Positions 1,611 through 21,074 of a DNA stretch of 64,000 nucleotides are shown in pieces. Both the position numbers and the translations under genes were made by a program. Positions within the stretch are counted from its first letter, which is position 1. Every line of letters begins with the position of its first letter. The notes beneath the pieces were generated by a model, which searched no databases, was not told where the DNA came from, and saw only the letters and a list, made by a program, of their open reading frames with translations. The DNA is from Oricola sp. (lineage in GTDB: Bacteria; Pseudomonadota; Alphaproteobacteria; Rhizobiales; Rhizobiaceae): contig NZ_JALEGV010000041.1 in NCBI RefSeq assembly GCF_022763245.1, positions 355,223 to 419,222 of the forward strand, in the 5' to 3' direction.

Positions 1611-2594
1611 TCAGGCGTTTCCGATCGCCATGCCGGCCGCGAACACCAGCGCGCCGCCCAGCACCACCTGGAAGATCGCCCGGCTCCAGGGCGTCTCCAT
1701 CCAGCGTTTCTGGATCCAGGCGATCGCCCACAATTCGATGACGACGACGATCATGGCGATCACCGTCGCGGTCCAGAAATGCGGGATCAGATAGGGCAGG
1801 GCGTGGCCGAGGCCGCCGACCGCCGTCATGATGCCGGTGGCAAGCCCCCGCTTGATCGGCGAACCGCGCCCGGAGATGACGCCGTCGTCGGAGGCGACCT
1901 CGGTGAAGCCCATCGAGATGCCTGCACCGACGGAGGCGGCCAGGCCGACCAGGAAGGTGGTCCAGGGATCCTGCGTCGCGAAGGCCGTAGCGAAGATCGG
2001 CGCCAGCGTGGAGACCGATCCGTCCATCAGGCCGGCCAGCCCCGGCTGGACATAGGTCAGGATGAATTGCCGCCGCTCGACCTGGTCCTCGGCCTCGCGC
2101 ACCTCTTCCGGCAGATGCTTGGCTTCCAGCTCTTCGGCGGTCGTCTGGTGGCCCGCTTCCGCCAGCGCCAGCTCGCCGAGCAACTTGCGGGTGTCGGCGT
2201 CCTCGCATTGCTGGGCGGCGCGCAGATAGAAGCGATGCGCCTGCGCTTCCATGATCGCGGCCTGCGCGCGCACCTTCTCGATGCCGAGCGGCCGCACCAG
2301 CCAGTCCGGCTTCCTCTCGTAGTAGCCGCGCACATGCTCGCGCCTGATCAGCGGAATGTGGTCGCCGAAACGCTTCTTGTGCAGGTCGATCAGCCGGGCG
2401 CGGTGCGTCGTCTCCTCCTCGGCCATTTCCTCGAAGATCTTCGCGGAGTTCGGATAATCCTCGGCGAGCCCGTCGGCATAGGCGAGATAGATGCGTGCGT
2501 CGTCCTCCTCCGAGGAAATGGCGAGCGCGAGAATCTCCTGTTCGCTCAAGGACTTGAAGTCGCGGCGCGCGGAGGGGAACAGACGTTGCAGCAT
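1611..2594 (-). CDS. mbfA: membrane-bound ferritin-like (erythrin) and VIT1/CCC1 iron-export protein
   Basis: N-terminal ferritin/rubrerythrin-like domain (EEMAEEETTHRARL...ELALAEAGHQ) fused to a C-terminal multi-TM VIT1/CCC1 domain. This is the architecture of MbfA in Agrobacterium and Bradyrhizobium. An Irr ICE box lies 17 bp upstream. Confidence 0.85.
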   Translation of the reverse strand: MLQRLFPSARRDFKSLSEQEILALAISSEEDDARIYLAYADGLAEDYPNSAKIFEEMAEEETTHRARLIDLHKKRFGDHIPLIRREHVRGYYERKPDWLVRPLGIEKVRAQAAIMEAQAHRFYLRAAQQCEDADTRKLLGELALAEAGHQTTAEELEAKHLPEEVREAEDQVERRQFILTYVQPGLAGLMDGSVSTLAPIFATAFATQDPWTTFLVGLAASVGAGISMGFTEVASDDGVISGRGSPIKRGLATGIMTAVGGLGHALPYLIPHFWTATVIAMIVVVIELWAIAWIQKRWMETPWSRAIFQVVLGGALVFAAGMAIGNA

Positions 2595-2610
2595 GGGAGG
2601 CGAATTCCAA

Positions 2611-2627
2611 TTTAGAATGGTTCTAAA
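2611..2627. promoter_or_regulatory. Irr-binding iron control element (ICE) in the mbfA promoter
   Basis: The sequence tttagaatggttctaaa is a perfect match to the ICE consensus TTTAGAA-N3-TTCTAAA. It lies immediately upstream of the mbfA start (2594, minus strand). Confidence 0.65.
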
Positions 2628-2706
2628 TTATGGAGAGTTTGCCCTTTGTCAAGAAACAGAACGCCGCACCGGCTATTGTTGCGCCAATGTCATATTTGGG
2701 GGACGA

Positions 2707-3192
2707 ATGGCTGCGATGGCCCTGGAGATCGAACGCAAATTCCTCGTCGAGAACGGCGACTGGCGTGAGGCGACGGAAACGTCGCGCCGGATTGTCCAGG
2801 CCTATCTGGCGCTGGACGGCGACGTCTCCGTGCGCATCCGCATTTCCGACGACCGCGCCGCGCGTATCGCCGTCAAGATCGGCCAGTCGGGCCTCAATCG
2901 CGAGGAGTTCGAATATCCCGTCCCGCTCGAAGACGCCCGCCGAATGATCGCCGCCAATGCCCGGCGCCTGATCGAGAAGACCCGCTACACCGTCACCTTC
3001 GAGGGGTTCCTGTGGGAGGTCGACGCCTATGAGGGCGCGCTGTCGGGCCTTGTGATCGCCGAGGTGGAGCTGGAGAGCGAAGACGACGATCCCCGCCTGC
3101 CCGCCTGGGTCGGCCGGGAAGTCACCGGCGACAATGACTGGTCGAATGCGCGGCTCGCCATTGCGGGCCTGCCGGAAGAGACGCGAGTGTGA
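2707..3192 (+). CDS. CYTH-domain protein (triphosphate tunnel metalloenzyme / class IV adenylate-cyclase-like)
   Basis: Internal ATG at 2707 (MAAMALEIERKFLVEN...). The EIERKFLV N-terminal motif and the repeated acidic EXEXK-type strands are typical of CYTH. The longer listed ORF (from 2491) overlaps the mbfA promoter. Confidence 0.75.
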   Translation: MAAMALEIERKFLVENGDWREATETSRRIVQAYLALDGDVSVRIRISDDRAARIAVKIGQSGLNREEFEYPVPLEDARRMIAANARRLIEKTRYTVTFEGFLWEVDAYEGALSGLVIAEVELESEDDDPRLPAWVGREVTGDNDWSNARLAIAGLPEETRV

Positions 3193-3202
3193 CCGTCCAC
3201 CG

Positions 3203-4117
3203 ATGAGCGACCGTATTCGGCCCGGAGAACCGCTGACCGACGAGGTCGTCCGCATTGCCGGCAAGCAGTACGGCAAGGCGATCAGGATCCTGCGTGACGA
3301 GCCGAAGGGACGTTACGAGGCGATTCACGACGCGCGCAAGCGTTTCAAGCGCCTCAGGGGCCTCTACCGGCTTGTGCGCGAGGCGGCGCCCGAATTCTGC
3401 GCCCGGGAGAACGCGCGCCTGCGCGACACGGCCCGCACCCTGTCGGCCGTGCGCGACGCGACGGCGCTGGTGGAGGCGCTCGACCGGTTGCTCGGCGATT
3501 GCGAGACTGACGAATGCCGTCAGGCGCTCACCTCGGTTCGCGACCGCCTCGCGGGCCGCCGCGATGCGATCGCCGCTAGCCAGACGGATCTCGACGCGCG
3601 GATGGTGGCGGCGATCGAGGCCTGCGAAGCGGGCCTTGCCTCTCTCTGCGACCTGAAATTGCCCGGCGGCGGCAAGACCGCCGTCGACGTCCTGGCGCGC
3701 GGGACCTCGAAGACCTACGGTCGCGCCGTCAAGGCGCTGGCCTGCGCCCGCGAGACCGACGCTCCCGCCGACTGGCACGAGCTGCGCAAGCACGTCAAAT
3801 ACCACTGGACGCACCTGCAATTGCTGCGGCCGGCCTGGCCGGGCGCGATGGACGCCCGCGCCGGTGTGGCAGATCAGGTCGCCGAAGCGCTTGGTGACGA
3901 CCATGATCTGGCCGCCCTGTCGGCACTGATCGCTGCCGAACCGGACTTGGCGGGCGACGCCGGCGAGATCGACATCCTGCGCGGTATGATGGCGGCGCGG
4001 TCCGAACGGCTGCATGCACAGGCGCGCGCGATGCTCACGCACCTCCTGCAGGACGATCCCGCTATTATTCGCAGCCGTGTCGCGGCACTCCTGCGCGCCG
4101 CCGCCGCCGCCGACTGA
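3203..4117 (+). CDS. CHAD-domain protein
   Basis: A ~300-aa all-helical Arg/His-rich protein (HDARKRFKRLRGLYRL...LRKHVKYHWTHLQLL). Start at ATG 3203, 11 nt after the CYTH stop. CYTH-CHAD adjacency and fusion is a well-known pairing. Confidence 0.75.
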   Translation: MSDRIRPGEPLTDEVVRIAGKQYGKAIRILRDEPKGRYEAIHDARKRFKRLRGLYRLVREAAPEFCARENARLRDTARTLSAVRDATALVEALDRLLGDCETDECRQALTSVRDRLAGRRDAIAASQTDLDARMVAAIEACEAGLASLCDLKLPGGGKTAVDVLARGTSKTYGRAVKALACARETDAPADWHELRKHVKYHWTHLQLLRPAWPGAMDARAGVADQVAEALGDDHDLAALSALIAAEPDLAGDAGEIDILRGMMAARSERLHAQARAMLTHLLQDDPAIIRSRVAALLRAAAAAD

Positions 4118-11664: not shown

Positions 11665-13506
11665 TCAGGAATCCGCGCTGCCGCGCGCCTGGTGGACCGC
11701 CTTCAGCGCCCGGTCCAGATAGATGTCGCGATCATAGATGTCGGAGAAATACTCCACCTTGCCTTCGGCCGTCGGCCAGGCGGTGTAGTAGGAAATGAAG
11801 ACCGGCACCTTCTTGGCGACCTTCTCCGCCTTCTCGCCGCCGCCGGCGGCGATCATCGAGCGCACATAATCCTCGCTCTTGCCGAGCACCGCGGCGGCCA
11901 TGGCCTGCGGCTGCTGCAGGCGCACGCAACCGTGGCTGAACGCCCGAACGTCGCGGTCGAACAGGTGCCGCGACGGCGTGTCGTGCATGTAGATCGAGTG
12001 CTTGTTGGGGAAGAGGATCTTCACCTCGCCCAGCGCGTTGCTCGGGCCGGGCTTCTGGCGCACGTCATAGGGCACCTTGCCGGAATAGTTCCACCACTGC
12101 ACGCTGGCCGAGGAGACACGGCGGCCCGACGCGTTGGTGACCTCGTAACCCGCGCGATCGAGATAGCTCGGGTCGCGATAGAGCTTCGGCAGCATCTCGT
12201 TGACGATGATCGACTGCGGCACGCCCCAATAGGGGTTGTAGACCACGGTCTCGACCTCGTCGAAGAAGAAGCTCGTCTGGTTGGACTTCTTGCCGATCAC
12301 CGCCCGCGTGGACAGCTTGTCGACGCCGTTTTCCGTGTAGGTCGCGCGGAAGGCCGGCTGGTTGATCACCACGTGGCGCATGCCGAACTCTTCGGGATGC
12401 CAGCGCAGCCGCTCCATCGCCAGTTCGACGCGTTCGACCTTCGAGGCGTGACCGACGTCGCTCAGATGCGAGATGGTGTTCCGGCCGACGATGCCGTCCG
12501 GCACGAGGCCGTTCTCGCGCTGGAAATCCCTCACCAGTTCGGCGATCGCATGGGTATATTCCTCGCCGCCGAGATATTCGGCGAAGGTCGCGGCATGCTT
12601 GACGCGCGTTTCCTCGCTGACGCGCTTCCTGAGCGCCTTGACGATCAGCGGCAGCGCCGGCTCGGTCTGGCCGACCTTGACGAAGGTGCCGGAGGGGATG
12701 ACGATCTCGTCCACATCCTCGGCCCGCAATGAGGCGAGCTCGCGCTTCAGCGCGGCATATTCTTCCTGGCGCGGCTCGAGCGTCTTCAGCCAGAAGCCGG
12801 GATTCTTCGTCTTCGACAGAATGCCGATCGTCTGTTCGGCGCCGAGGCGCGGCAGCGGGAAATCGTGATAGCCCGACAGCTTGTCCGGAATGACCGCGCC
12901 GTCCTTGACGTCCTGCGCGTAGCGGATCGCGCGCGCCGACAGGGTCATCTCGAAGGCGAGCAGGTCGGCGGTGCGGCCGGCCGGATTGTCCATCGACCAG
13001 CCGTCACGCGGCACGGCGACGGCGTAATCGGCGGCTTCCAGCCCCTGGTCGGCGGCCTTTTCAAGCATGGCGGCGACGGCCTTCGCCTCGTCGGTGACAC
13101 TGTTGCCGCGCGACCAGATGAACTTCGGATTGGCCGCGTAATGCGCCTTCAGCGCGGCGGCGATGTCCTTTTCCATCGTCAGGCTGGTGTCCGGCGCGAG
13201 CGCGGTCGCTTCGGCGAACCGCCGGCTCTCGAAATCGAGGCTCGGCTCGAGCCCGCCCGCCTGCTCGGCTTCGGGCATCAGCGACGCGATCGAAACGGTG
13301 GTCATCGCTTCGGGCTTGTAGGTGTAGTAGCGAGGGCTGGAGACCGTGACGATCTTGGCCGGCGCCGCGCGGCGGACTTCCTCCTGCCGGCGCTCCTCGC
13401 GCTTCTTGCGTCCCCCGCCGAACAGCAATTCGTGCAACTGCACCTGCGCCTGCGACGGCACGGAGAAAACAGGGACCGCAGGAATCGCGATCGCTGCCGT
13501 CAACAT
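11665..13506 (-). CDS. L,D-transpeptidase (YcbB/YkuD family) with peptidoglycan-binding domain
   Basis: Catalytic motif SHGCVRLQ. Signal peptide from Met 13506 (MLTAAIAIPAVPVFSVPSQAQ). ~610 aa. Confidence 0.8.
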   Translation of the reverse strand: MLTAAIAIPAVPVFSVPSQAQVQLHELLFGGGRKKREERRQEEVRRAAPAKIVTVSSPRYYTYKPEAMTTVSIASLMPEAEQAGGLEPSLDFESRRFAEATALAPDTSLTMEKDIAAALKAHYAANPKFIWSRGNSVTDEAKAVAAMLEKAADQGLEAADYAVAVPRDGWSMDNPAGRTADLLAFEMTLSARAIRYAQDVKDGAVIPDKLSGYHDFPLPRLGAEQTIGILSKTKNPGFWLKTLEPRQEEYAALKRELASLRAEDVDEIVIPSGTFVKVGQTEPALPLIVKALRKRVSEETRVKHAATFAEYLGGEEYTHAIAELVRDFQRENGLVPDGIVGRNTISHLSDVGHASKVERVELAMERLRWHPEEFGMRHVVINQPAFRATYTENGVDKLSTRAVIGKKSNQTSFFFDEVETVVYNPYWGVPQSIIVNEMLPKLYRDPSYLDRAGYEVTNASGRRVSSASVQWWNYSGKVPYDVRQKPGPSNALGEVKILFPNKHSIYMHDTPSRHLFDRDVRAFSHGCVRLQQPQAMAAAVLGKSEDYVRSMIAAGGGEKAEKVAKKVPVFISYYTAWPTAEGKVEYFSDIYDRDIYLDRALKAVHQARGSADS

Positions 13507-13709
13507 CAAATTCAAAATACGTTTGGAAATCACGGCAAACTCCGCTTCGTTCGCTTTCCTGCCCCGACGGCACGGACAATACCCAACCGATCGTGGTTTA
13601 TAAAGAGTGAGCCGCGCGACAATCGCGATCACGTTTTCGACAACAACCCGTCACGCCGGCGCGTCGATTGGCATGGACGCGCCATGCGGTGCACGCTATG
13701 GCTTGGCCC

Positions 13710-16631
13710 ATGAACAAAGACGATCACGTGTTCCTTGTCGATGGGTCAGCCTATATTTTTCGGGCTTTTCACGCGCTTCCGCCGCTGACCCGCAAATCCG
13801 ACGGCCTTCCGGTCGGCGCCGTCGCCGGCTTCTGCAACATGCTCTGGAAACTGCTGCAGGACGCGCGCGACACCGAAGTCGGCGTCACGCCGACGCATTT
13901 CGCGGTGATCTTCGACTATTCCTCCAAGACGTTCCGCAAGGAGCTCTACCCCGAATACAAGGCGAATCGCTCCGAGCCGCCGGAGGATCTGATCCCGCAA
14001 TTCGGCCTGATTCGCGAGGCGACGCGCGCCTTCAACCTGCCGTGCATCGAGGTCGAGGGCTTCGAGGCCGACGACATCATCGCGACCTATGCCCGCCAGG
14101 CCGAGGCCGTCGGCGCGCATACGACGATCATCTCGTCGGACAAGGACCTGATGCAGCTCGTCTCCGACCATGTGTCGATGTACGATTCGATGAAGGACAA
14201 GCAGATCGGCATCGCCGAAGTGATCGAGAAATTCGGCGTCGGGCCGGAAAAGATGATCGACCTGCAGGCGCTGAACGGGGATTCCACCGACAACGTGCCG
14301 GGCGTGCCGGGCATCGGCCCGAAGACCGCGGCACAGCTGCTGGAGGAATATGGCGACCTCGACACGCTCCTGGAGCGCGCGTCGGAGATCAAGCAGAACA
14401 AGCGGCGCGAGAACCTGATCGAATTCGCCGACCAGGCGCGGCTGTCGCGCGAACTCGTCACCCTGCGCACCGACACGCCGCTCGACATCGATCTCGACGG
14501 GCTGAAGCTGGAGCCGCAGGACGGGCCGAAGCTGATCGCCTTCCTCAAGGCGATGGAATTCAACACGCTGACGCGCCGGGTGGCCGAAGCGGTCGGCGCC
14601 GATGCGAGCGAAGTGGAGGCGGCCGAAGTCGCGGTCGAGGCCGGCGCGAAGGCCCATGGTCCCGATCTGGACGAGGGCTCGGCACCGGAGCCTGACGCCG
14701 GCGGCGCGGACGAGACCGGCGATGACGCGCTGACGCCTGCCGCCTTTGCCGCCGCGCGCGCGAAAGCCGCGGCCACCGCGAAATTCGACACCGACGCTTA
14801 TGTCTGCATCCGCGATGTCGAGACGCTCGACGCGTGGGTCGCGCGGGCGCGCGAAGCCGGCGTCGTCGCTTTCGACACCGAGACGAACTCGCTCGACGCG
14901 ATGCAGGCCGAGCTGGCCGGCTTCTCGCTGTGTTCCACGCCGGGAGAAGCGGCCTATGTGCCGCTCAACCACAAATCCGGAAATGGCGACCTTCTGGGCG
15001 GCGGCCTGGTGGAAGACCAGATCCCGATCGACGATGCTTTGAGTCGGCTAAAGGAATTGCTGGAAGACCCCGCCATCCTCGTCGTCGGCCAGAACATCAA
15101 GTATGACTGGCTGGTGATGAGCCGCTACGGCATCGAGATCGCTTCGCTCGACGACACGATGCTGCTCTCCTATGTCGTTGACGCCGGCACGGGCACGCAC
15201 GGCATGGATTCGCTGGCGGAGCGCTGGCTCGGCCACACGCCGATCGCCTACAAGGACATCGCGGGAACCGGCAAGAAGGCCCTGACCTTCGACATGATCG
15301 AGCTGGCGACCGCGACGCGCTACGCCGCCGAGGACGCCGACATCACGCTGCGGCTCTGGCAGGCGCTGAAGCCGCAAGTGCTCGCCAAGGGCCTGACGAC
15401 CATCCACGAGCGGCTGGAGCGGCCGCTGGTCTCGGTGCTGGCCCGGATGGAGGCACGCGGAATCTCCGTGGACCGGCAAATCCTTAGCCGGCTATCGGGC
15501 GAGTTCGCGCAGAAGGCTGCAGCCATCGAGGACGAGATCTACGAGCTCGCCGGCGAGAAGTTCAATGTCGGTTCGCCCAAGCAGCTCGGCGAAATCCTGT
15601 TCGGCAAGATGGGCCTGCCCGGCGGCACCAAGACGAAGTCGGGACAATGGGCCACCGGGGCGCAGCTTCTCGAGGATCTGGCCGCCGAAGGGCACGAATT
15701 GCCGCGCCGCATCGTCGATTGGCGGCAGCTCACCAAGCTGAAATCCACCTATACGGACGCGCTGCCGGGCTACATCCGTCCCGAGACGAAGCGGGTGCAC
15801 ACGTCCTATTCGCTTGCCGCGACCACCACGGGCCGGCTCTCCTCGTCGGAACCGAACCTGCAGAACATCCCGGTTCGCACGGCGGAAGGCCGGCGCATCC
15901 GCACCGCCTTCGTTGCCGAAAAGGGCAACAAGCTCATTTCGGCCGACTACAGCCAGATCGAGCTGCGCGTGCTTGCCCATGTCGCCGACATCGCGCAGCT
16001 GAAACAGGCCTTCGCCGACGGCGTCGACATCCATGCGCTGACCGCCTCTGAAATGTTCGGCGTGCCGGTGGAAGGCATGCCGTCCGAGGTGCGGCGGCGT
16101 GCCAAGGCGATCAATTTCGGCATCATCTACGGCATCTCCGCCTTCGGCCTGGCCAATCAGCTCGGCATCCCGCGATCGGAAGCCGGCGACTACATCAAGA
16201 CCTATTTCGAGCGCTTCCCCGGCATCAAGGACTACATGGACGCGACCAAGGCGTTCGCGCGCGAGAACGGCTATGTCGAGACCATCTTCGGCCGCCGGGC
16301 GCATTACCCGGAGATCAAGTCCTCCAATCCGCAGGTGCGGGCCTTCAACGAGCGCGCGGCGATCAACGCGCCGATCCAGGGATCGGCCGCCGACATCATC
16401 CGCCGTGCCATGATTCGCATGGAAGAGGCGCTCGGCGGTGCGAAGCTGTCGGCGCGGATGCTCCTGCAGGTGCATGACGAACTGATCTTCGAGGCGCCCG
16501 AGGGTGAAGTCGACGACACGATCGCGGTCGTGCGCAAGGTCATGGAAAACGCCGCGCTGCCGGCGATCCAGATGGCGGTGCCGCTGCATGTCGACGCGTC
16601 GGCGGCGGACAATTGGGACGAGGCGCATTAG
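13710..16631 (+). CDS. polA: DNA polymerase I
   Basis: 5'-3' exonuclease, 3'-5' exonuclease and polymerase palm motifs (DYSQIELRVLAH, QVHDELIFE). 973 aa from Met 13710. Confidence 0.95.
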   Translation: MNKDDHVFLVDGSAYIFRAFHALPPLTRKSDGLPVGAVAGFCNMLWKLLQDARDTEVGVTPTHFAVIFDYSSKTFRKELYPEYKANRSEPPEDLIPQFGLIREATRAFNLPCIEVEGFEADDIIATYARQAEAVGAHTTIISSDKDLMQLVSDHVSMYDSMKDKQIGIAEVIEKFGVGPEKMIDLQALNGDSTDNVPGVPGIGPKTAAQLLEEYGDLDTLLERASEIKQNKRRENLIEFADQARLSRELVTLRTDTPLDIDLDGLKLEPQDGPKLIAFLKAMEFNTLTRRVAEAVGADASEVEAAEVAVEAGAKAHGPDLDEGSAPEPDAGGADETGDDALTPAAFAAARAKAAATAKFDTDAYVCIRDVETLDAWVARAREAGVVAFDTETNSLDAMQAELAGFSLCSTPGEAAYVPLNHKSGNGDLLGGGLVEDQIPIDDALSRLKELLEDPAILVVGQNIKYDWLVMSRYGIEIASLDDTMLLSYVVDAGTGTHGMDSLAERWLGHTPIAYKDIAGTGKKALTFDMIELATATRYAAEDADITLRLWQALKPQVLAKGLTTIHERLERPLVSVLARMEARGISVDRQILSRLSGEFAQKAAAIEDEIYELAGEKFNVGSPKQLGEILFGKMGLPGGTKTKSGQWATGAQLLEDLAAEGHELPRRIVDWRQLTKLKSTYTDALPGYIRPETKRVHTSYSLAATTTGRLSSSEPNLQNIPVRTAEGRRIRTAFVAEKGNKLISADYSQIELRVLAHVADIAQLKQAFADGVDIHALTASEMFGVPVEGMPSEVRRRAKAINFGIIYGISAFGLANQLGIPRSEAGDYIKTYFERFPGIKDYMDATKAFARENGYVETIFGRRAHYPEIKSSNPQVRAFNERAAINAPIQGSAADIIRRAMIRMEEALGGAKLSARMLLQVHDELIFEAPEGEVDDTIAVVRKVMENAALPAIQMAVPLHVDASAADNWDEAH

Positions 16632-16632
16632 C

Positions 16633-17307
16633 GTGTCCGGGCCGAACCCGCAGGACGATCTGCTTGCGGTTCTGACCGGCGATATCGTGCGCTCGTCCGC
16701 CCTGACCGCGGATGAGCTGGGCGCCGTCATGACGACGGTCAGGACCGGCACCGAGACCTTTGGGGCGCTCTATCCGGGCAGCGTCATCGGCGAGGCCGAC
16801 ATCTTTCGCGGCGATTCCTGGCAGGTCGCGATGGCCCGTCCGGGCCTGTCCCTGCGCCTGGCGGTCTATCTGCGTGCCGGCGTCGTCGCCGGCGGTCTGA
16901 CCGACACGCGCGTCTCGATCGGGATCGGGTCTGAGAACGCGGTGTCCGCGGACCGGATCTCGCAATCAACCGGCAAGGCTTTCCTCTCCTCCGGCCGTGG
17001 GCTGGACGATATCGGTGGCCGCCAGATGGCCCTCGCGATGCCCGACGCGCAGTCCGATACGCAGGCGCTGGCGGCGGGCCTCGTCCTGCTCATTGACCAC
17101 CTTGTGACGTCCTGGACCGTCAAGCAGGCCGGCGCGGTGCGCGACATGCTCGAGAACCCCGGCAAGCCGGATGCGGACATCGTCAATGCCCGCCTGTCGG
17201 ACAGCGACCGGCGCAACTTCGCCAAGTTGCGGAACCGCGCGCATGCGTCGCTGCTTCTCGACGTGCTCGACGCTTTCGAAGGCCTGACCTGCTGGAGCGA
17301 CTCGTGA
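16633..17307 (+). CDS. SatD-like protein (putative degenerate nucleotidyl-cyclase-like fold)
   Basis: GTG start 1 nt after the polA stop. The motifs LAVLTGDIVRSSAL / ADIFRGDSWQVAM / TRVSIGIGSE recall the metal-binding strands of cyclase/GGDEF palm domains. It is followed by a DUF3307 gene, as in the satD-satE pair of Streptococcus. Confidence 0.45.
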   Translation: MSGPNPQDDLLAVLTGDIVRSSALTADELGAVMTTVRTGTETFGALYPGSVIGEADIFRGDSWQVAMARPGLSLRLAVYLRAGVVAGGLTDTRVSIGIGSENAVSADRISQSTGKAFLSSGRGLDDIGGRQMALAMPDAQSDTQALAAGLVLLIDHLVTSWTVKQAGAVRDMLENPGKPDADIVNARLSDSDRRNFAKLRNRAHASLLLDVLDAFEGLTCWSDS

Positions 17308-17355
17308 GGCCTTGCGTCTCGGGCGTCTGGCGGAAAGGCGGTCCAACATCATTTT

Positions 17356-17402
17356 GGAACCGAAAGCGGTTCCTATCTAAAAAAGGAACCGAAATCGGTT
17401 CC
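17356..17402. promoter_or_regulatory. two tandem 18-bp palindromes GGAACCGAAAGCGGTTCC / GGAACCGAAATCGGTTCC, 11 bp apart
   Basis: Read directly from the sequence: 7-4-7 inverted repeats at 17356-17373 and 17385-17402. They lie 37 bp upstream of the DUF3307 start codon. Confidence 0.4.
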
Positions 17403-17438
17403 AGATGCCAGCAGGTTAGCGCATAAGGGGCGCATCGG

Positions 17439-18158
17439 ATGATCGAGACCTTCACGATACTGCTTCTGGCGCATCTGCTGGCCGATTTCGTGTTCCAGCC
17501 GGAACGCTTCGCCAAGCGCAAGGGGGAGGTCGGCGTCCTGACGGTGCACATCGCCATCGTCACCGTGACCGCGTTTCTTGCGCTCGGCTATTTCGCACCG
17601 ATGATCCTGGTTCCGATCGCTGTCACGCACTTCGTCATCGACCTGACCAAGTCCCGTCTCGGAACCTTCAATCTGAGATGGTTCCTGGGAGATCAGGGCG
17701 CCCATATCGCGGTGGTCGCCGCCGTGTCGATCCTGGCGCCGGCCGACCTGTCGAAATCGTTGATCTACGTGCATCTGAACGCGGCCGAGCTAGCGTCGAC
17801 ATTGTCGGCGATGATGCTCGGCTCGGGCTTCATCCTCGCCGTGCTGGCGGGAACCTACGGGGTGGAGCTCTTCGTGAAGCCCCATGCCGACACGCTTGGA
17901 GACGCCCTGAACGGGCTGCCCAAGGGCGGTCGCGTCATCGGGCAACTGGAGCGCTTTCTCGTCTTCATATTCTCCGTCACGCACAACCCGGCGGGGATCG
18001 GCTTCCTGATCGCCGCCAAGTCGATCCTGCGCTTCGGCGACATTTCCAATCACAGCCAGCGCAAGGTCGCCGAATACGTCATCATCGGAACGCTGTGCAG
18101 CTTCTCCTGGGCCATCGGCTTCAGCCAGCTCGCCATGTGGGCTGCCGGGCTGTTCTAG
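17439..18158 (+). CDS. DUF3307 (SatE-like) integral membrane protein
   Basis: N-terminal motif LLLAHLLADFVFQ is characteristic of DUF3307. Multiple hydrophobic TM segments. 239 aa. Confidence 0.6.
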   Translation: MIETFTILLLAHLLADFVFQPERFAKRKGEVGVLTVHIAIVTVTAFLALGYFAPMILVPIAVTHFVIDLTKSRLGTFNLRWFLGDQGAHIAVVAAVSILAPADLSKSLIYVHLNAAELASTLSAMMLGSGFILAVLAGTYGVELFVKPHADTLGDALNGLPKGGRVIGQLERFLVFIFSVTHNPAGIGFLIAAKSILRFGDISNHSQRKVAEYVIIGTLCSFSWAIGFSQLAMWAAGLF

Positions 18159-18162
18159 GGTC

Positions 18163-19059
18163 TCAGGCGCACATCTCGTCGAAACAGGCTGTAACGTGAT
18201 CGGCGACCGCGCTTGAGCAGCAGCCGGCGTTTTCCTTCACCCGCATGCGGATCTGGTAGGTGCCGAGCGGCGGCAGCCCCTGTTTCTCGCCGAGCGCGAT
18301 CAGCGGCTCCGCGATGAAGCTCTTCGGGAAGGGCGCGATCGCGAGGTCGGACACGATCGCCGCGAACTGGGCCTGCGTGTGCGGGGTCATGTAGGCGGTG
18401 CGGTAGCTGCGCCCGATTTCGCTGAGCGCGCGCACCGCGTCGGCGCGCCACGGGCAGCTTTCCGACCACATGGACAGGGGCAGCGGCTCGCGCTCCCAGG
18501 CGCAGCCGCCCTTGACGCCGGCCCAGACGAGATCCTCCTCCAGCAGCACCTGCGCGCCGTCCTCCAGCCCGTCGGAGTGGGCGGTATAGACCATGACGTC
18601 GAGTTGCCCGTTCTCGAACCGCTTCGTCAGCAATTCGCTGGTCTCGATGATGACGTTGACCTGGACATTCGGATGGGTCTCGGCGAAGCGCTTGAGCACC
18701 TGCGGCATGATGCGCTCGCCATAGTCGTCCGGCGCGCCGAGGCAGACCGTGCCTTCCATCTCCGGCATCACGAAGCGCGCCATCATCTCGTTCGACAGCG
18801 CCAGGATGCGTCGCGCATAACCGACCAGCATCTCGCCGCCGGCCGTCAGCTTCACGGACCGCGAGTCGCGCGCGAAGACCGAGGTGCCCAGGGCCTCCTC
18901 CAACTTCTTCACCTGCATCGACACCGCCGACGGAGTCCGAAACACACGCTCCGCCGCCTTGGAGAAGCTGCCTGTGTCCGCGATAGCGAGAAAGGTGCGC
19001 AGCAGATCAATGTCGACCGGCGTCTGGACGAGGGCCGGCTTCGCGTTCGGAGCATTCAT
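18163..19059 (-). CDS. LysR-family transcriptional regulator
   Basis: N-terminal HTH (LLRTFLAIADTGSFSKAAERVFRTPSAVSMQVKKLEEALG) plus a LysR substrate-binding domain. Confidence 0.85.
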   Translation of the reverse strand: MNAPNAKPALVQTPVDIDLLRTFLAIADTGSFSKAAERVFRTPSAVSMQVKKLEEALGTSVFARDSRSVKLTAGGEMLVGYARRILALSNEMMARFVMPEMEGTVCLGAPDDYGERIMPQVLKRFAETHPNVQVNVIIETSELLTKRFENGQLDVMVYTAHSDGLEDGAQVLLEEDLVWAGVKGGCAWEREPLPLSMWSESCPWRADAVRALSEIGRSYRTAYMTPHTQAQFAAIVSDLAIAPFPKSFIAEPLIALGEKQGLPPLGTYQIRMRVKENAGCCSSAVADHVTACFDEMCA

Positions 19060-19197: not shown

Positions 19198-19497
19198 ATG
19201 ACCACGATCGAATCATTCCATGGGCACGATGACGCCCGCTCGGGGCGCGCCGTCGCTGGGCGTATCATGGGAGTTCTCGCACAGGCCGCGCTTGTCATCC
19301 CGCGGGCGCTCGTCCGCTGGCAGCGCCAGCGCCGCGACAGGGCCGCCTTCATGACGCTGCTCGGCAAGGATGAGTGGGTCTATCGCGATCTCGGCATCAG
19401 CCGCGGCGACGTGGAATGGGCGGCCCGCCTGCCGATGCACCAGAACGCTGCCCGCGAAGTCGACAAGATCCGCGCCCAGCGTCGGCAGAGCTGGTAA
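19198..19497 (+). CDS. DUF1127 small protein (second copy)
   Basis: C-terminal DEWVYRDLGISRGDVEWAARLP is the DUF1127 signature. Divergent from the LysR regulator. Confidence 0.7.
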   Translation: MTTIESFHGHDDARSGRAVAGRIMGVLAQAALVIPRALVRWQRQRRDRAAFMTLLGKDEWVYRDLGISRGDVEWAARLPMHQNAAREVDKIRAQRRQSW

Positions 19498-19527: not shown

Positions 19528-20421
19528 CTATCCGTCGCGCGGCGTCCACGCCACGCGATAGAGTTCCGGTCGCCGATCATGCAGATTGCGCACCGACCCT
19601 CTCTCTCGCGCTGAGTCTAGGGGCGCCATGTCGATGTCGGCGATGATCATCGTCTCGGCGTTCTCTGTCGCTTCCGCCGCGATTCCGTCGCGGGCGAAGG
19701 CGTGGTCGGATGGCGTCAGCACCGCCGACTGTGCGAAATTGATGTCCATGTTGGCGACATTCGGCACAGTGCCGACAAGGCCCGACGTCACCACGTAGCA
19801 CTGATTCTCCACCGTGCGGGCATGGCAGCAATAGCGCACCCGCAAATGGCCGTGACGCGTGTCGGTGCAATAGGGCACGAAGAAGAGCTTCGCCCCGGCG
19901 TCGGTCAGATGCCGCCCCATCTCCGGAAATTCGCTATCATAGCAGATCATAACGCCGATCGGCCCGCGATCGGTCTCGACCGGCTCCGCCGAACCGCCGC
20001 CCGAAATGGCCCAGACGGATTTCTCGTCCGGCGTCGGGTGCAGCTTGTCGCGCGCATGCAGTGTGCCGTCCCGCAGGGCGACGTAGGTGACGTTACGCGC
20101 CTTGCCGTCATCGCCGATCGTCGCATGCGAACCGCCGATGATATTGATGTCATGCGCGCGCGCCAGCGCGACCAGCCGCTCCTTCAGCGCGTCCGTATGG
20201 CCCGTGAGCCGGTGGATCGCTTCGGACGCCGGCACCATCGTTGCTTCTCCGGAAAGGAGCTGCAGCGTGAAATGCTCCGGAAAACAGACGAAATCGGCGC
20301 CGTAATCGCCGGCCGACCGCACATAGGTCGCGACGCGGTCGAAGAACACGTCCGCCGACGGTGTGAACTGCGCGGCGAACTGGACGCTAGCGACGCGAAC
20401 AGTGCCGGGCGTGGCGCTCAT
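19528..20421 (-). CDS. carbon-nitrogen hydrolase (nitrilase-superfamily) protein
   Basis: VRVASVQF... E-K-C catalytic triad context (FPEHF, KLHP, GVMICYD). 297 aa from Met 20421. Its start overlaps the msrA stop by 4 nt. Confidence 0.8.
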
Positions 20422-21074
20422 TCCGCAGCGCCGGGACAGGCGACGCCGGTGCCTCTCAGGCCGCAATAGCCGCCGGGGTTCTTCGCCAGATATTGCTGGT
20501 GATAGTCCTCGGCATAATAGAAGACGGGCGCCGGCCGGATCTCGGTCGTGATCGTCGCGCCCATGCCTCCCGCCTTCAACGCCGCCTGATAGGCGTCGCG
20601 GCTGGCCTCGGCGGCGGCGAGCTGCGCGTCGCTGGTCGTGTAGATCGCCGAGCGATAGGTGGTTCCGATGTCGTTGCCCTGGCGCATGCCCTGGGTCGGA
20701 TCGTGTTCCTCCCAGAACGTCTTCAGCAGCGCGTCGAGGCTCACCTTGTCCGGATCGAAGACGACCAGCACCATCTCGGCATGGCCGGTCATGCCTGTGG
20801 TCGTTTCCTGATAGGTGGGGTTGGGCGTGTGTCCGCCGGCATAGCCGACCGCGGTCACATAAACGCCGTCCATTTTCCAGAAAAGCCGTTCGGCCCCCCA
20901 GAAACAGCCCATGCCGAGATAGATCACCTGCATGCCGTCGGGCCAGGGTCCCTTCAACGGCTTGCCGTTGACGAAATGGTTTGCAGGGCTCGGCAAGGGC
21001 TCCGACCGGCCGGGCAGTGCCTGGGCGGGGTCGGGCATCTTTGTCTTTCTGTCGAACATGCTGGCGAGGAACAT
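20418..21074 (-). CDS. msrA: peptide-methionine (S)-S-oxide reductase
   Basis: GCFWG active-site motif ([16 protein letters not shown]). Confidence 0.9.

Follow-up and report, generated by a model that had tools for sequence, protein, structure and literature searches.

Directly behind polA in a 64,000-nucleotide stretch of Oricola sp. DNA (contig NZ_JALEGV010000041.1; hereafter the window) lie two genes, one for a SatD-like protein of 224 amino acids (aa) and one for a DUF3307 (SatE-like) membrane protein, with a pair of palindromes in the spacer that separates them. What does such a gene pair do, and what reads the palindromes? We consider it fairly probable that the SatD-like protein is a one-component transcription regulator, made of a palm-type sensor and a helix-turn-helix (HTH) domain, which would bind the palindromes as operators to control the DUF3307 gene. 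Related palindromes recur as arrays across the family, and their half-sites change together with the predicted recognition helix of the SatD-like protein.

Palindromic sites in the spacer of the window locus

The preliminary description of this DNA had reported twin, perfect 18-bp palindromes, 11 bp apart and 37 bp before the DUF3307 start. The two palindromes are real, and so is the gap of 11 nt (29 bp from start to start). Both read GGAACC-N6-GGTTCC, and they are imperfect at their centres: site 1 has arms of 7 bp around a 4-nt centre and site 2 arms of 8 bp around a 2-nt centre. The second does lie close to the DUF3307 start, with 36 nt between its end and the ATG rather than 37 bp. The exact pattern occurs at just these two places in the 64-kb window and in none of 100 dinucleotide-preserving shuffles. 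A degenerate third copy precedes site 1, and at its position the right half GGTTCC is intact in three relatives (L001, L004 and L006) in the A3 alignment of the spacer. Oricola and Hoeflea relatives with 48-66% protein identity have three sites, one every 29 bp, whose right half GGTTCC does not vary, and the sequence flanking them has diverged.

Inverted repeats of this kind could also act as RNA hairpins (a terminator, attenuator or stabiliser), or be bound by some other regulator such as LysR, and have nothing to do with the SatD-like protein. The spacer RNA would fold well (z = -4.66) and the closest relatives keep a LysR gene beside the pair, both of which would suit such an explanation. 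On the minus strand, at 17385-17412, site 2 followed by TTTTTT fits the intrinsic-terminator pattern; no converging gene needs a terminator there, and we rejected this reading of site 2 since L001 and L006 do not keep the T-run. The coding strand has no T-run after the hairpins. In the close relatives it is the half-site sequence itself that is kept, the changes being one-sided or pair-breaking; the spacer has no excess of compensatory change (covariation score not above shuffles, 135/500), and an Rfam search of it returned nothing relevant. LysR was rejected as the binder because the same site architecture is found in many loci without LysR, in several phyla, and upstream of satD where the two genes overlap. 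A LexA box was rejected by inspection: in Alphaproteobacteria the SOS box repeats GAAC directly (GAAC-N7-GAAC), and the sites of the window are inverted, GAAC being followed after N8 by GTTC. Together with the covariation described next, in which the half-site tracks the SatD recognition helix, these observations make a role confined to RNA or to another regulator highly improbable.

Half-sites vary together with the predicted recognition helix

Across the family we found arrays of 2-6 palindromes of 18 bp, 28-29 bp apart, located upstream of satD, between the two genes, or both. Their placement follows the gene arrangement: overlapping pairs have the sites ahead of the regulator gene, and pairs with a spacer have them inside it, sometimes in both places. 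The half-sites include GCAAGC, ACAACC, ACAAGY, TCAAGC, ACAGCY and ACAGGY among others. For example, a Bacteroidota conjugative transposon (L012) carries three copies of ACAACC-N6-GGTTGT at 28 bp, the Escherichia coli plasmid pEC34A has TCAACC...GGTTGA-type sites lying upstream, and Ignavibacterium album has two copies of TACAAGC...GCTTGTA at 29 bp. Counting AACC-N6-GGTT was too narrow, because half-sites vary by clade, and was replaced by a generic palindrome-pair test, the strict form of which asks for at least two like sites 27-30 bp apart and was controlled with shuffles and coding sequence. This strict test was passed by 29 of 75 loci, compared with a mean of 0.0 in the shuffles and 0 in the coding control.

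The half-site changes with one residue of the predicted recognition helix, the last of the heptad S-x-Q-x-x-x-[7] (K198 in the window protein). This helix position 7 is Lys in 13 of the 15 loci that have AC at half-site positions 4-5 (xxxACx) and in 0 of 29 others (Fisher p = 2e-9, a value that ignores shared ancestry). Gln at the same position goes with AAG[CT] (p = 3e-4) and Arg with CAGC (p = 4e-5), which yields a simple rule of Lys with AACC, Gln with AAGC and Arg with CAGC. Once stated, the rule was tried on two further cases and held in both: pEC34A combines Lys with TCAACC, and I. album Gln with ACAAGC. Members of the Lys/AACC class come from Bacteroidota, from enterobacterial and Pseudomonas elements, and from Alphaproteobacteria; within the group of loci linked to polA, L069 combines TCAACC sites with the helix TVQNVSK, and the window clade combines GGAACC with DRRNFAK. 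Because the half-site tracks the predicted recognition helix, the SatD-like protein is the most likely binder of the palindromes, and the covariation speaks against both LysR and a role at the RNA level only. A cognate palindromic operator near its own locus is a mark of an HTH regulator, and the arrays together with the helix covariation supply a putative one for this family.

A predicted C-terminal HTH domain in the SatD-like protein

The domain that is key to the palindromes had been overlooked in the preliminary description. An AlphaFold model of the SatD-like protein (predicted local distance difference test, pLDDT, 92.9; predicted template modelling score, pTM, 0.91) divides into a beta-alpha-beta palm domain at about residues 10-137 and a helical C-terminal domain at 141-216. 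Over residues ~140-205, members of the family give sub-threshold matches to the HTH models GerE (6e-4), Sigma70_r4_2 (2e-4), HTH_20 (1.9e-4) and MarR (1.7e-3), with Sigma70_r4 and HTH_Crp_2 falling on the same stretch, and weak matches of the C-terminus reach phage sigma factors and the MarR/ArsR/Cro HTHs of the PDB. One member is named 'Transcriptional regulator' in UniRef, and a C-terminal fragment bears the JGI name 'DNA-binding NarL/FixJ family response regulator'. Foldseek on the whole SatD-like model did not bring up the small HTH domain.

The C-terminal HTH of the pEC34A protein and of a further relative (P0068) also matched the HTH end of Csa3/CasR/CARF3 profiles (E 2e-5 to 3e-3). Csa3/CasR-type CARF-HTH regulators are alike in layout, a nucleotide-sensing domain being fused to an HTH, and share weak HTH sequence similarity with the SatD-like proteins. 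Unlike them, the SatD-like sensor has a palm/cyclase fold rather than CARF, and there is no CRISPR context.

The palm domain keeps the metal-binding positions of class III cyclases

D17 (codon 16681-16683) and D61 (16813-16815) are invariant in the SatD-like family, and R59, R93 and S120-G121-R122 are near-invariant. When the family profile was compared with the cyclase Ma1120 (E 1.4e-4), TGDivrS aligned with FTDIEES, RGDswQ with QGDGFM, and DtRvsiGiG with EIRVRIGIH. D17 and D61 thus fall on the Asp residues of FTDIEES and QGDGFM, in agreement with the earlier proposal that two Asp of this protein occupy cyclase-type metal-binding positions. The palm fold is common to the SatD-like protein, the class III cyclases (Ma1120, Rv1625c, Cya2, bPAC) and the GGDEF diguanylate cyclases; with the class III enzymes the SatD-like protein further shares the two metal-binding Asp, in strand 1 and in the GD hairpin, and the Arg of the RxGIH-like strand. 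S120-G121-R122 lies outside the aligned region of the Ma1120 comparison and may match the Arg of the class III transition-state Asn/Arg pair. Judged by its retention of two Asp and two Arg, the palm domain probably binds a nucleoside triphosphate with Mg or Mn.

There are also clear differences from the enzymes. The base-specifying Lys of class III cyclases (VVKSQGD, four residues before the GD Asp) is Ile in the SatD-like DIFRGD. The motif GG[DE]EF is absent from the SatD-like hairpin, which reads FRGDSWQ, and neither PF00990 nor Guanylate_cyc was matched in Pfam. In contrast to GGDEF and class III enzymes, the SatD-like palm domain is fused to an HTH. A cyclase-homology domain that serves as an ATP-binding sensor module in a regulator is found in PDB 6yii (Pseudomonas aeruginosa), a 'Class III adenylyl cyclase-like ATP-binding protein' with the molecule name 'Transcriptional regulator'. 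Regulators of the 6yii type are large multi-domain proteins, whereas the SatD-like protein is a minimal two-domain protein of 224 aa that is always paired with one membrane-protein gene.

Alternatively, the palm domain could itself have nucleotidyl cyclase activity and make a product that acts on DUF3307, as happens in the Pycsar and CBASS systems, with the palindromes serving another factor. These systems likewise combine a cyclase-fold protein and a membrane protein in two genes, Pycsar cyclases are structural neighbours of the SatD-like model, and the invariant Asp pair with conserved Arg residues may suggest catalysis rather than mere binding. However, the Lys-to-Ile replacement and the missing motifs speak against an active cyclase; DUF3307 matches no known nucleotide-binding or cyclic-nucleotide-binding family in Pfam, NCBIfam or PADLOC; and the fused HTH and co-varying operators, which set the SatD-like protein apart from Pycsar and CBASS cyclases, point to a transcriptional output. 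Nor does the locus match a PADLOC system: with PADLOC v2 the SatD-like protein gave only a weak 'Cyclase' match (PDLC00822, E 0.032, 11.6 bits), which we did not use, as it was too weak and lay in the C-terminal region. We regard a second-messenger system as quite unlikely, and the 'nucleotide-signalling membrane system' put forward earlier is not supported, given the Ile in place of the cyclase Lys and a DUF3307 protein that matches no known nucleotide-binding family.

Kinship to the SatD family

The SatD-like protein contains LLAVLTGDIVRSS, EADIFRGDSWQ and DTRVSIGIGSE. The label SatD-like had been given to it at the outset, and its standing depends on how it is approached. By profile search the window protein (16633-17307) does not reach the PF16264 gathering cut-off of 29 bits, and PF16264 is matched at E ≤ 0.01 by just 8 of 66 aligned homologues. 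P0008 (31.2 bits) and P0058 (31.6 bits) pass the cut-off and P0047, P0051 and P0053 (24-25 bits) stay below it. By homology to these passing relatives, and by its DUF3307 partner, the label is borne out: phmmer with the window protein finds P0008 at E 2.1e-25 and P0058 at E 3.5e-9, the family profile (A1) finds P0058 at E 8.9e-55, and relatives of P0058 carry the NCBI name 'SatD family protein'. As these sequence comparisons indicate, the window protein is a divergent SatD relative whose kinship to SatD is transitive, by way of homologues.

The family is large. A word-indexed search returned 81 relatives with 97-26% identity, and a profile search of 1.8 billion cluster representatives (clusters at 50% identity) returned 4334 at E ≤ 1e-3, with sizes of 200-255 aa among the matches listed (n = 150). 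A1 was too divergent an alignment for seeding a scan of loci, and a scan of genome contigs with the single protein yielded one locus.

SatD and SatE of Streptococcus (PF16264/PF11750) resemble the window pair in having a protein of ~220 aa with the two-domain layout followed by a DUF3307 membrane protein, a likeness that rests on Pfam naming and the literature; the sat operon of Streptococcus mutans was described by Kremer et al. 2001 (as cited in PMC11323703). The 'SatD family protein' of I. album shares the entire arrangement of housekeeping gene, satD, twin palindromes 29 bp apart and DUF3307. What distinguishes the window protein from the SatD family is its clade-specific recognition helix and GGAACC half-site, besides the lack of a direct PF16264 match. 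SatD is a family without established function, so that membership names the window protein and does not explain what it does; the window locus is a well-behaved but divergent member of this known, functionally uncharacterised family.

The DUF3307 membrane protein

The partner protein begins MIETFTILLLAHLLADFVFQ, which bears out the HLLADFxFQ-type start ascribed to it, and its DUF3307 membership is secure (PF11750, E 3e-17, 63.2 bits, cut-off 23), although the model covers only residues 5-99. An Oricola sp. record holds a protein 100% identical to it, and more than 1700 relatives are among the matches listed. Identities of relatives run from 40 to 78% over the whole length. The HxxxDFxxQ residues H12, D16, F17 and Q20 are invariant in the A2 alignment of DUF3307 proteins, as are K28, H37, H64, D68, K71, D85, Q86 and H89, all within the first four helices, and of these H12, D16, Q20, H37, H64, D68, K71, D85, Q86 and H89 are intramembrane; the C-terminal half is conserved at GGRxIGxLER, GIGFLIAAKSILRF and AEYVIIGT. 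With two HxxxD motifs and a DQxxH on adjacent helices, the protein is reminiscent of cation-diffusion-facilitator transporters and their zinc sites. In this polytopic protein, invariant His, Asp and Lys residues form a buried cluster, which suggests a metal- or proton-binding site such as a transporter, channel or intramembrane hydrolase may have. NCBIfam and PADLOC held no match for the protein, Pfam beyond its own family only a sub-threshold one to DUF4212, and the DUF3307 profile found nothing among PDB sequences.

IMG/VR contigs (L102-L114, at ~3001-3350) encode shorter proteins, 110-155 aa in length, whose similarity is confined to the N-terminal four-helix DUF3307 domain. As mechanical stop-to-stop open reading frames (ORFs) they reach 251 aa, and they also match phrog_2470, 'membrane protein'. 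These N-terminal-only viral proteins have no SatD-like neighbour; just the full-length DUF3307 genes are paired. A tblastn search of DUF3307 against phage genomes gave no match.

An obligate pair in varied genomic contexts

We surveyed ~85 loci from at least six bacterial phyla, and wherever enough contig was available to tell, the two genes were neighbours. Among loci reached through the SatD-like protein, DUF3307 was the next gene downstream in 11 of 11 distinct loci. Of 80 metagenome loci reached through DUF3307, all 65 with ~400 nt or more of upstream sequence had a same-strand SatD-like ORF directly upstream, the other 15 being too short to judge. The same pairing was found on four plasmids, in I. 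album and on two viral contigs with full-length DUF3307. Conservation of the pair across phyla, which had been claimed earlier, holds in all loci examined. The survey of polA-satD-satE synteny that had been suggested gave a divided answer: the satD-satE pairing is general, and polA stands upstream only in the Oricola/Hoeflea group (L001-L006) and in L069. The polA linkage is thus clade-specific, without demonstrated functional meaning.

Elsewhere, a gene of the DUF59/FeS_assembly_P type lies upstream of the pair in 33 loci, and an ErpA/HesB-type iron-sulfur (Fe-S) carrier gene lies downstream in 45. Alphaproteobacterial pairs flanked by Fe-S genes were seen in L007, L009, L011 and ~40 metagenome loci (for example L019, with flanking genes at 1895-2257 and 3747-4085). 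Because the flanks are ~70-80% identical, this context probably goes back to one old ancestral insertion. In I. album (L099, CP003418.1), at 2997-3001, satD starts 3 nt after a class I tRNA-synthetase gene of the glnS type, much like the coupling to polA, and the first of its twin palindromes (L099 3662-3710) overlaps the satD stop codon.

The pair also occurs in mobile contexts. The mobilizable, ColE1-type E. coli plasmid pEC34A (L095, NC_019077.1, 3770 bp) encodes the SatD-like protein at 1792-2472 and DUF3307 at 2483-3481, the latter a protein of 332 aa with an insertion between its two halves. Its other genes are rop, mobA and a small hypothetical gene, and the pair is the sole cargo; the pEC34A satD found no match in complete E. 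coli genomes. Six Klebsiella plasmids of 3.8-4.4 kb also match the SatD-like protein. The pair adjoins toxin-antitoxin (TA) genes on a 10-kb P. fragi plasmid. On a Sphingomonas insulae plasmid (L098, NZ_CP048421.1, 1953-9443) it lies between a TIR-domain gene, an HTH plus ImmA/IrrE, and an annotated Pycsar effector with an adenylate/guanylate cyclase, a setting like a defence island, and in L014 between an MmeI-type restriction-modification system, AAA_21 plus RloB, and a DEAD/MZB helicase. The L012 conjugative transposon, a P. aeruginosa island (L013) and two viral contigs carry the pair as well.

Such contexts raise the question of whether the pair is a TA-like or abortive-infection module, in which the SatD-like protein keeps a harmful DUF3307 protein silent until a change of nucleotide state, upon phage infection or plasmid loss, releases it and leads to arrest or death. 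This would extend the regulator reading rather than exclude it. The plasmid cargo, the transposon, island and viral carriage and the TA, TIR, Pycsar and restriction-modification neighbours all fit such a module, as does satD having been scored an essential accessory gene in S. pyogenes (PMC11323703). On the other hand, no PADLOC model matches either protein beyond weak HTH-only matches in relatives, the defence-island contexts are anecdotes and not a statistical enrichment, and alphaproteobacterial core genomes hold the pair stably, either behind polA or between Fe-S genes, an unusual behaviour for defence genes. This stable position argues for a housekeeping or stress role there, and we consider a defence or addiction function of the locus rather unlikely. 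We hold equally tentatively, as a conjecture we do not favour, that SatD/DUF3307 is a widespread mobile 'guarded membrane effector', in which a minimal cyclase-fold nucleoside triphosphate sensor with an HTH would silence a harmful intramembrane protein with a metal- or proton-binding site until the nucleotide state changes, serving addiction or abortive infection on plasmids and islands and having been domesticated behind polA, glnS and Fe-S genes in several lineages.

A model for control of the DUF3307 gene

Returning to the SatD-like protein as a one-component regulator, its anatomy suggests how it may act. It would act as a dimer, its palm domains probably pairing as those of class III cyclases do, and would read each 18-bp inverted repeat with two HTH domains, and binding of nucleotide and metal at D17, D61, R93 and R122 would tune its binding to DNA. 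With sites every 29 bp before the DUF3307 gene, the bound dimers would control that gene. Because the last site ends so close to the DUF3307 ATG, the sites must overlap the promoter or the early transcript, and for this reason repression is the most likely sign of control. In the window clade no operator serves the regulator gene itself, and this gene would be translationally coupled to polA, which could ensure a steady supply of regulator, so that the membrane-protein gene may be the only regulated target.

In a transposon-sequencing (Tn-seq) meta-analysis (PMC11323703), satD is reported to stand alone among the accessory genes of S. pyogenes in being scored as essential. An essential accessory satD is the pattern expected of a repressor, or of an antidote for a harmful partner, and by this analogy it hints that DUF3307 may be harmful when derepressed. 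The supplements of that paper (PMC11323703) do not mention satD or satE. Papers on pEC34A mention the plasmid just as a reference, and the literature search for DUF3307 returned one phage-genome paper only. As far as the literature searched shows, the operator and the recognition rule are new.

Several points weigh against this model. The window SatD-like protein matches no model in Pfam or NCBIfam even at E ≤ 10, be it of SatD or of an HTH, all HTH matches in its relatives fall below the Pfam cut-offs, and its recognition helix, SDSDRRNFAKLRNRA, is unlike the usual G-[IV]-S-x-Q... of the family. Most loci do not pass the strict paired-site test. The covariation is confounded by shared ancestry and has exceptions in L001 (Gln) and L016 (Asn), both with AAC half-sites, and the spacer RNA would itself fold stably (-58.2 kcal/mol). 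As to the ligand, the palm domain has the Ile described above in place of the base-specifying Lys, no Asp/Thr partner of that Lys was located, and what we take to be the equivalent of the transition-state Asn is not conserved, by our own reading of the motif GxxFxxSGR against GxxVNxAxR. A consensus scan found no sigma-70-type promoter, and the geometry of repression comes from distances only. Our literature search on SatD/SatE, PF16264 and PF11750 found no functional study, and no report of DNA binding, ligand binding or regulation for the family.

Layout of the locus and neighbouring genes

The order polA, SatD-like gene, DUF3307 gene agrees with the earlier account in coordinates and ORFs, including the size of the SatD-like protein and the 1 nt that separates its start codon from the polA stop (Table 1). 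The spacer between the SatD-like and DUF3307 genes measures 131 nt. The polA start is that of the mechanically listed ORF, and the true start is probably further downstream; the polA orthologue in L004 matches the Pfam models 5_3_exonuc, DNA_pol_A_exo1 and DNA_pol_A.

Table 1. Positions of the features of the polA-SatD-like-DUF3307 locus in the window
Feature	Positions	Strand	Basis or remark
polA (DNA polymerase I) ORF	13668..16631	+	ORF list; TAG stop 16629-16631
SatD-like (putative regulator) gene, 224 aa, GTG start	16633..17307	+	ORF list, homologues, AlphaFold model
Cyclase-homology (palm) domain, ~residues 1-137	16633..17043	+	
C-terminal helical, predicted DNA-binding (HTH) domain, ~residues 141-216	17053..17280	+	Model helices, family HTH matches, operator covariation
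Predicted recognition helix, residues 190-202	17200..17238	+	K198 codon 17224-17226
Degenerate third copy, CTGGCGGAAAGGCGGTCC	17327..17344	.	29 bp upstream of site 1; A3 alignment with L004, L006, L001
Operator site 1 (predicted), GGAACCGAAAGCGGTTCC	17356..17373	.	Half-sites kept in L001, L004, L006; flanks diverge
Operator site 2 (predicted), GGAACCGAAATCGGTTCC	17385..17402	.	Pattern scan and A3 alignment
Ribosome-binding site AAGGGG (likely)	17425..17430	+	8 nt before the DUF3307 ATG, read from the sequence
DUF3307 (SatE-like) gene, integral membrane protein, 239 aa, ATG start	17439..18158	+	

The LysR-type gene lies downstream of the DUF3307 gene at 18163-19059 and is convergent with it; it is also kept next to the pair in the closest relatives. 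Beyond it, and divergent from it, is a 99-aa ORF (19198-19497, +) without a Pfam match, the position and size (97-99 aa) of which are conserved in L002, L004 and L006, followed by a CN_hydrolase gene and msrA (20418-21074, minus). Upstream of polA, the window carries at 11665-13632 (-) a large YkuD-type L,D-transpeptidase gene with a peptidoglycan-binding domain, named from the Pfam matches of the L004 orthologue.

Significance for the SatD/DUF3307 family

The family to which this locus belongs is large (4334 regulator clusters) and reaches across several phyla, plasmids down to 3.8 kb, defence islands and pathogens, and our search turned up no functional study of it. With the features described here, a pair otherwise annotated as a 'hypothetical protein' and a DUF becomes testable: it has an 18-bp operator every 28-29 bp, a candidate specificity residue, K198, and a candidate pocket of D17, D61, R93 and R122. 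The model predicts that DUF3307 is harmful when derepressed, which, if true, could explain why satD scores as the only essential accessory gene in S. pyogenes. If the model is correct, the known one-component regulators would also be joined by one with a minimal cyclase-fold sensor.

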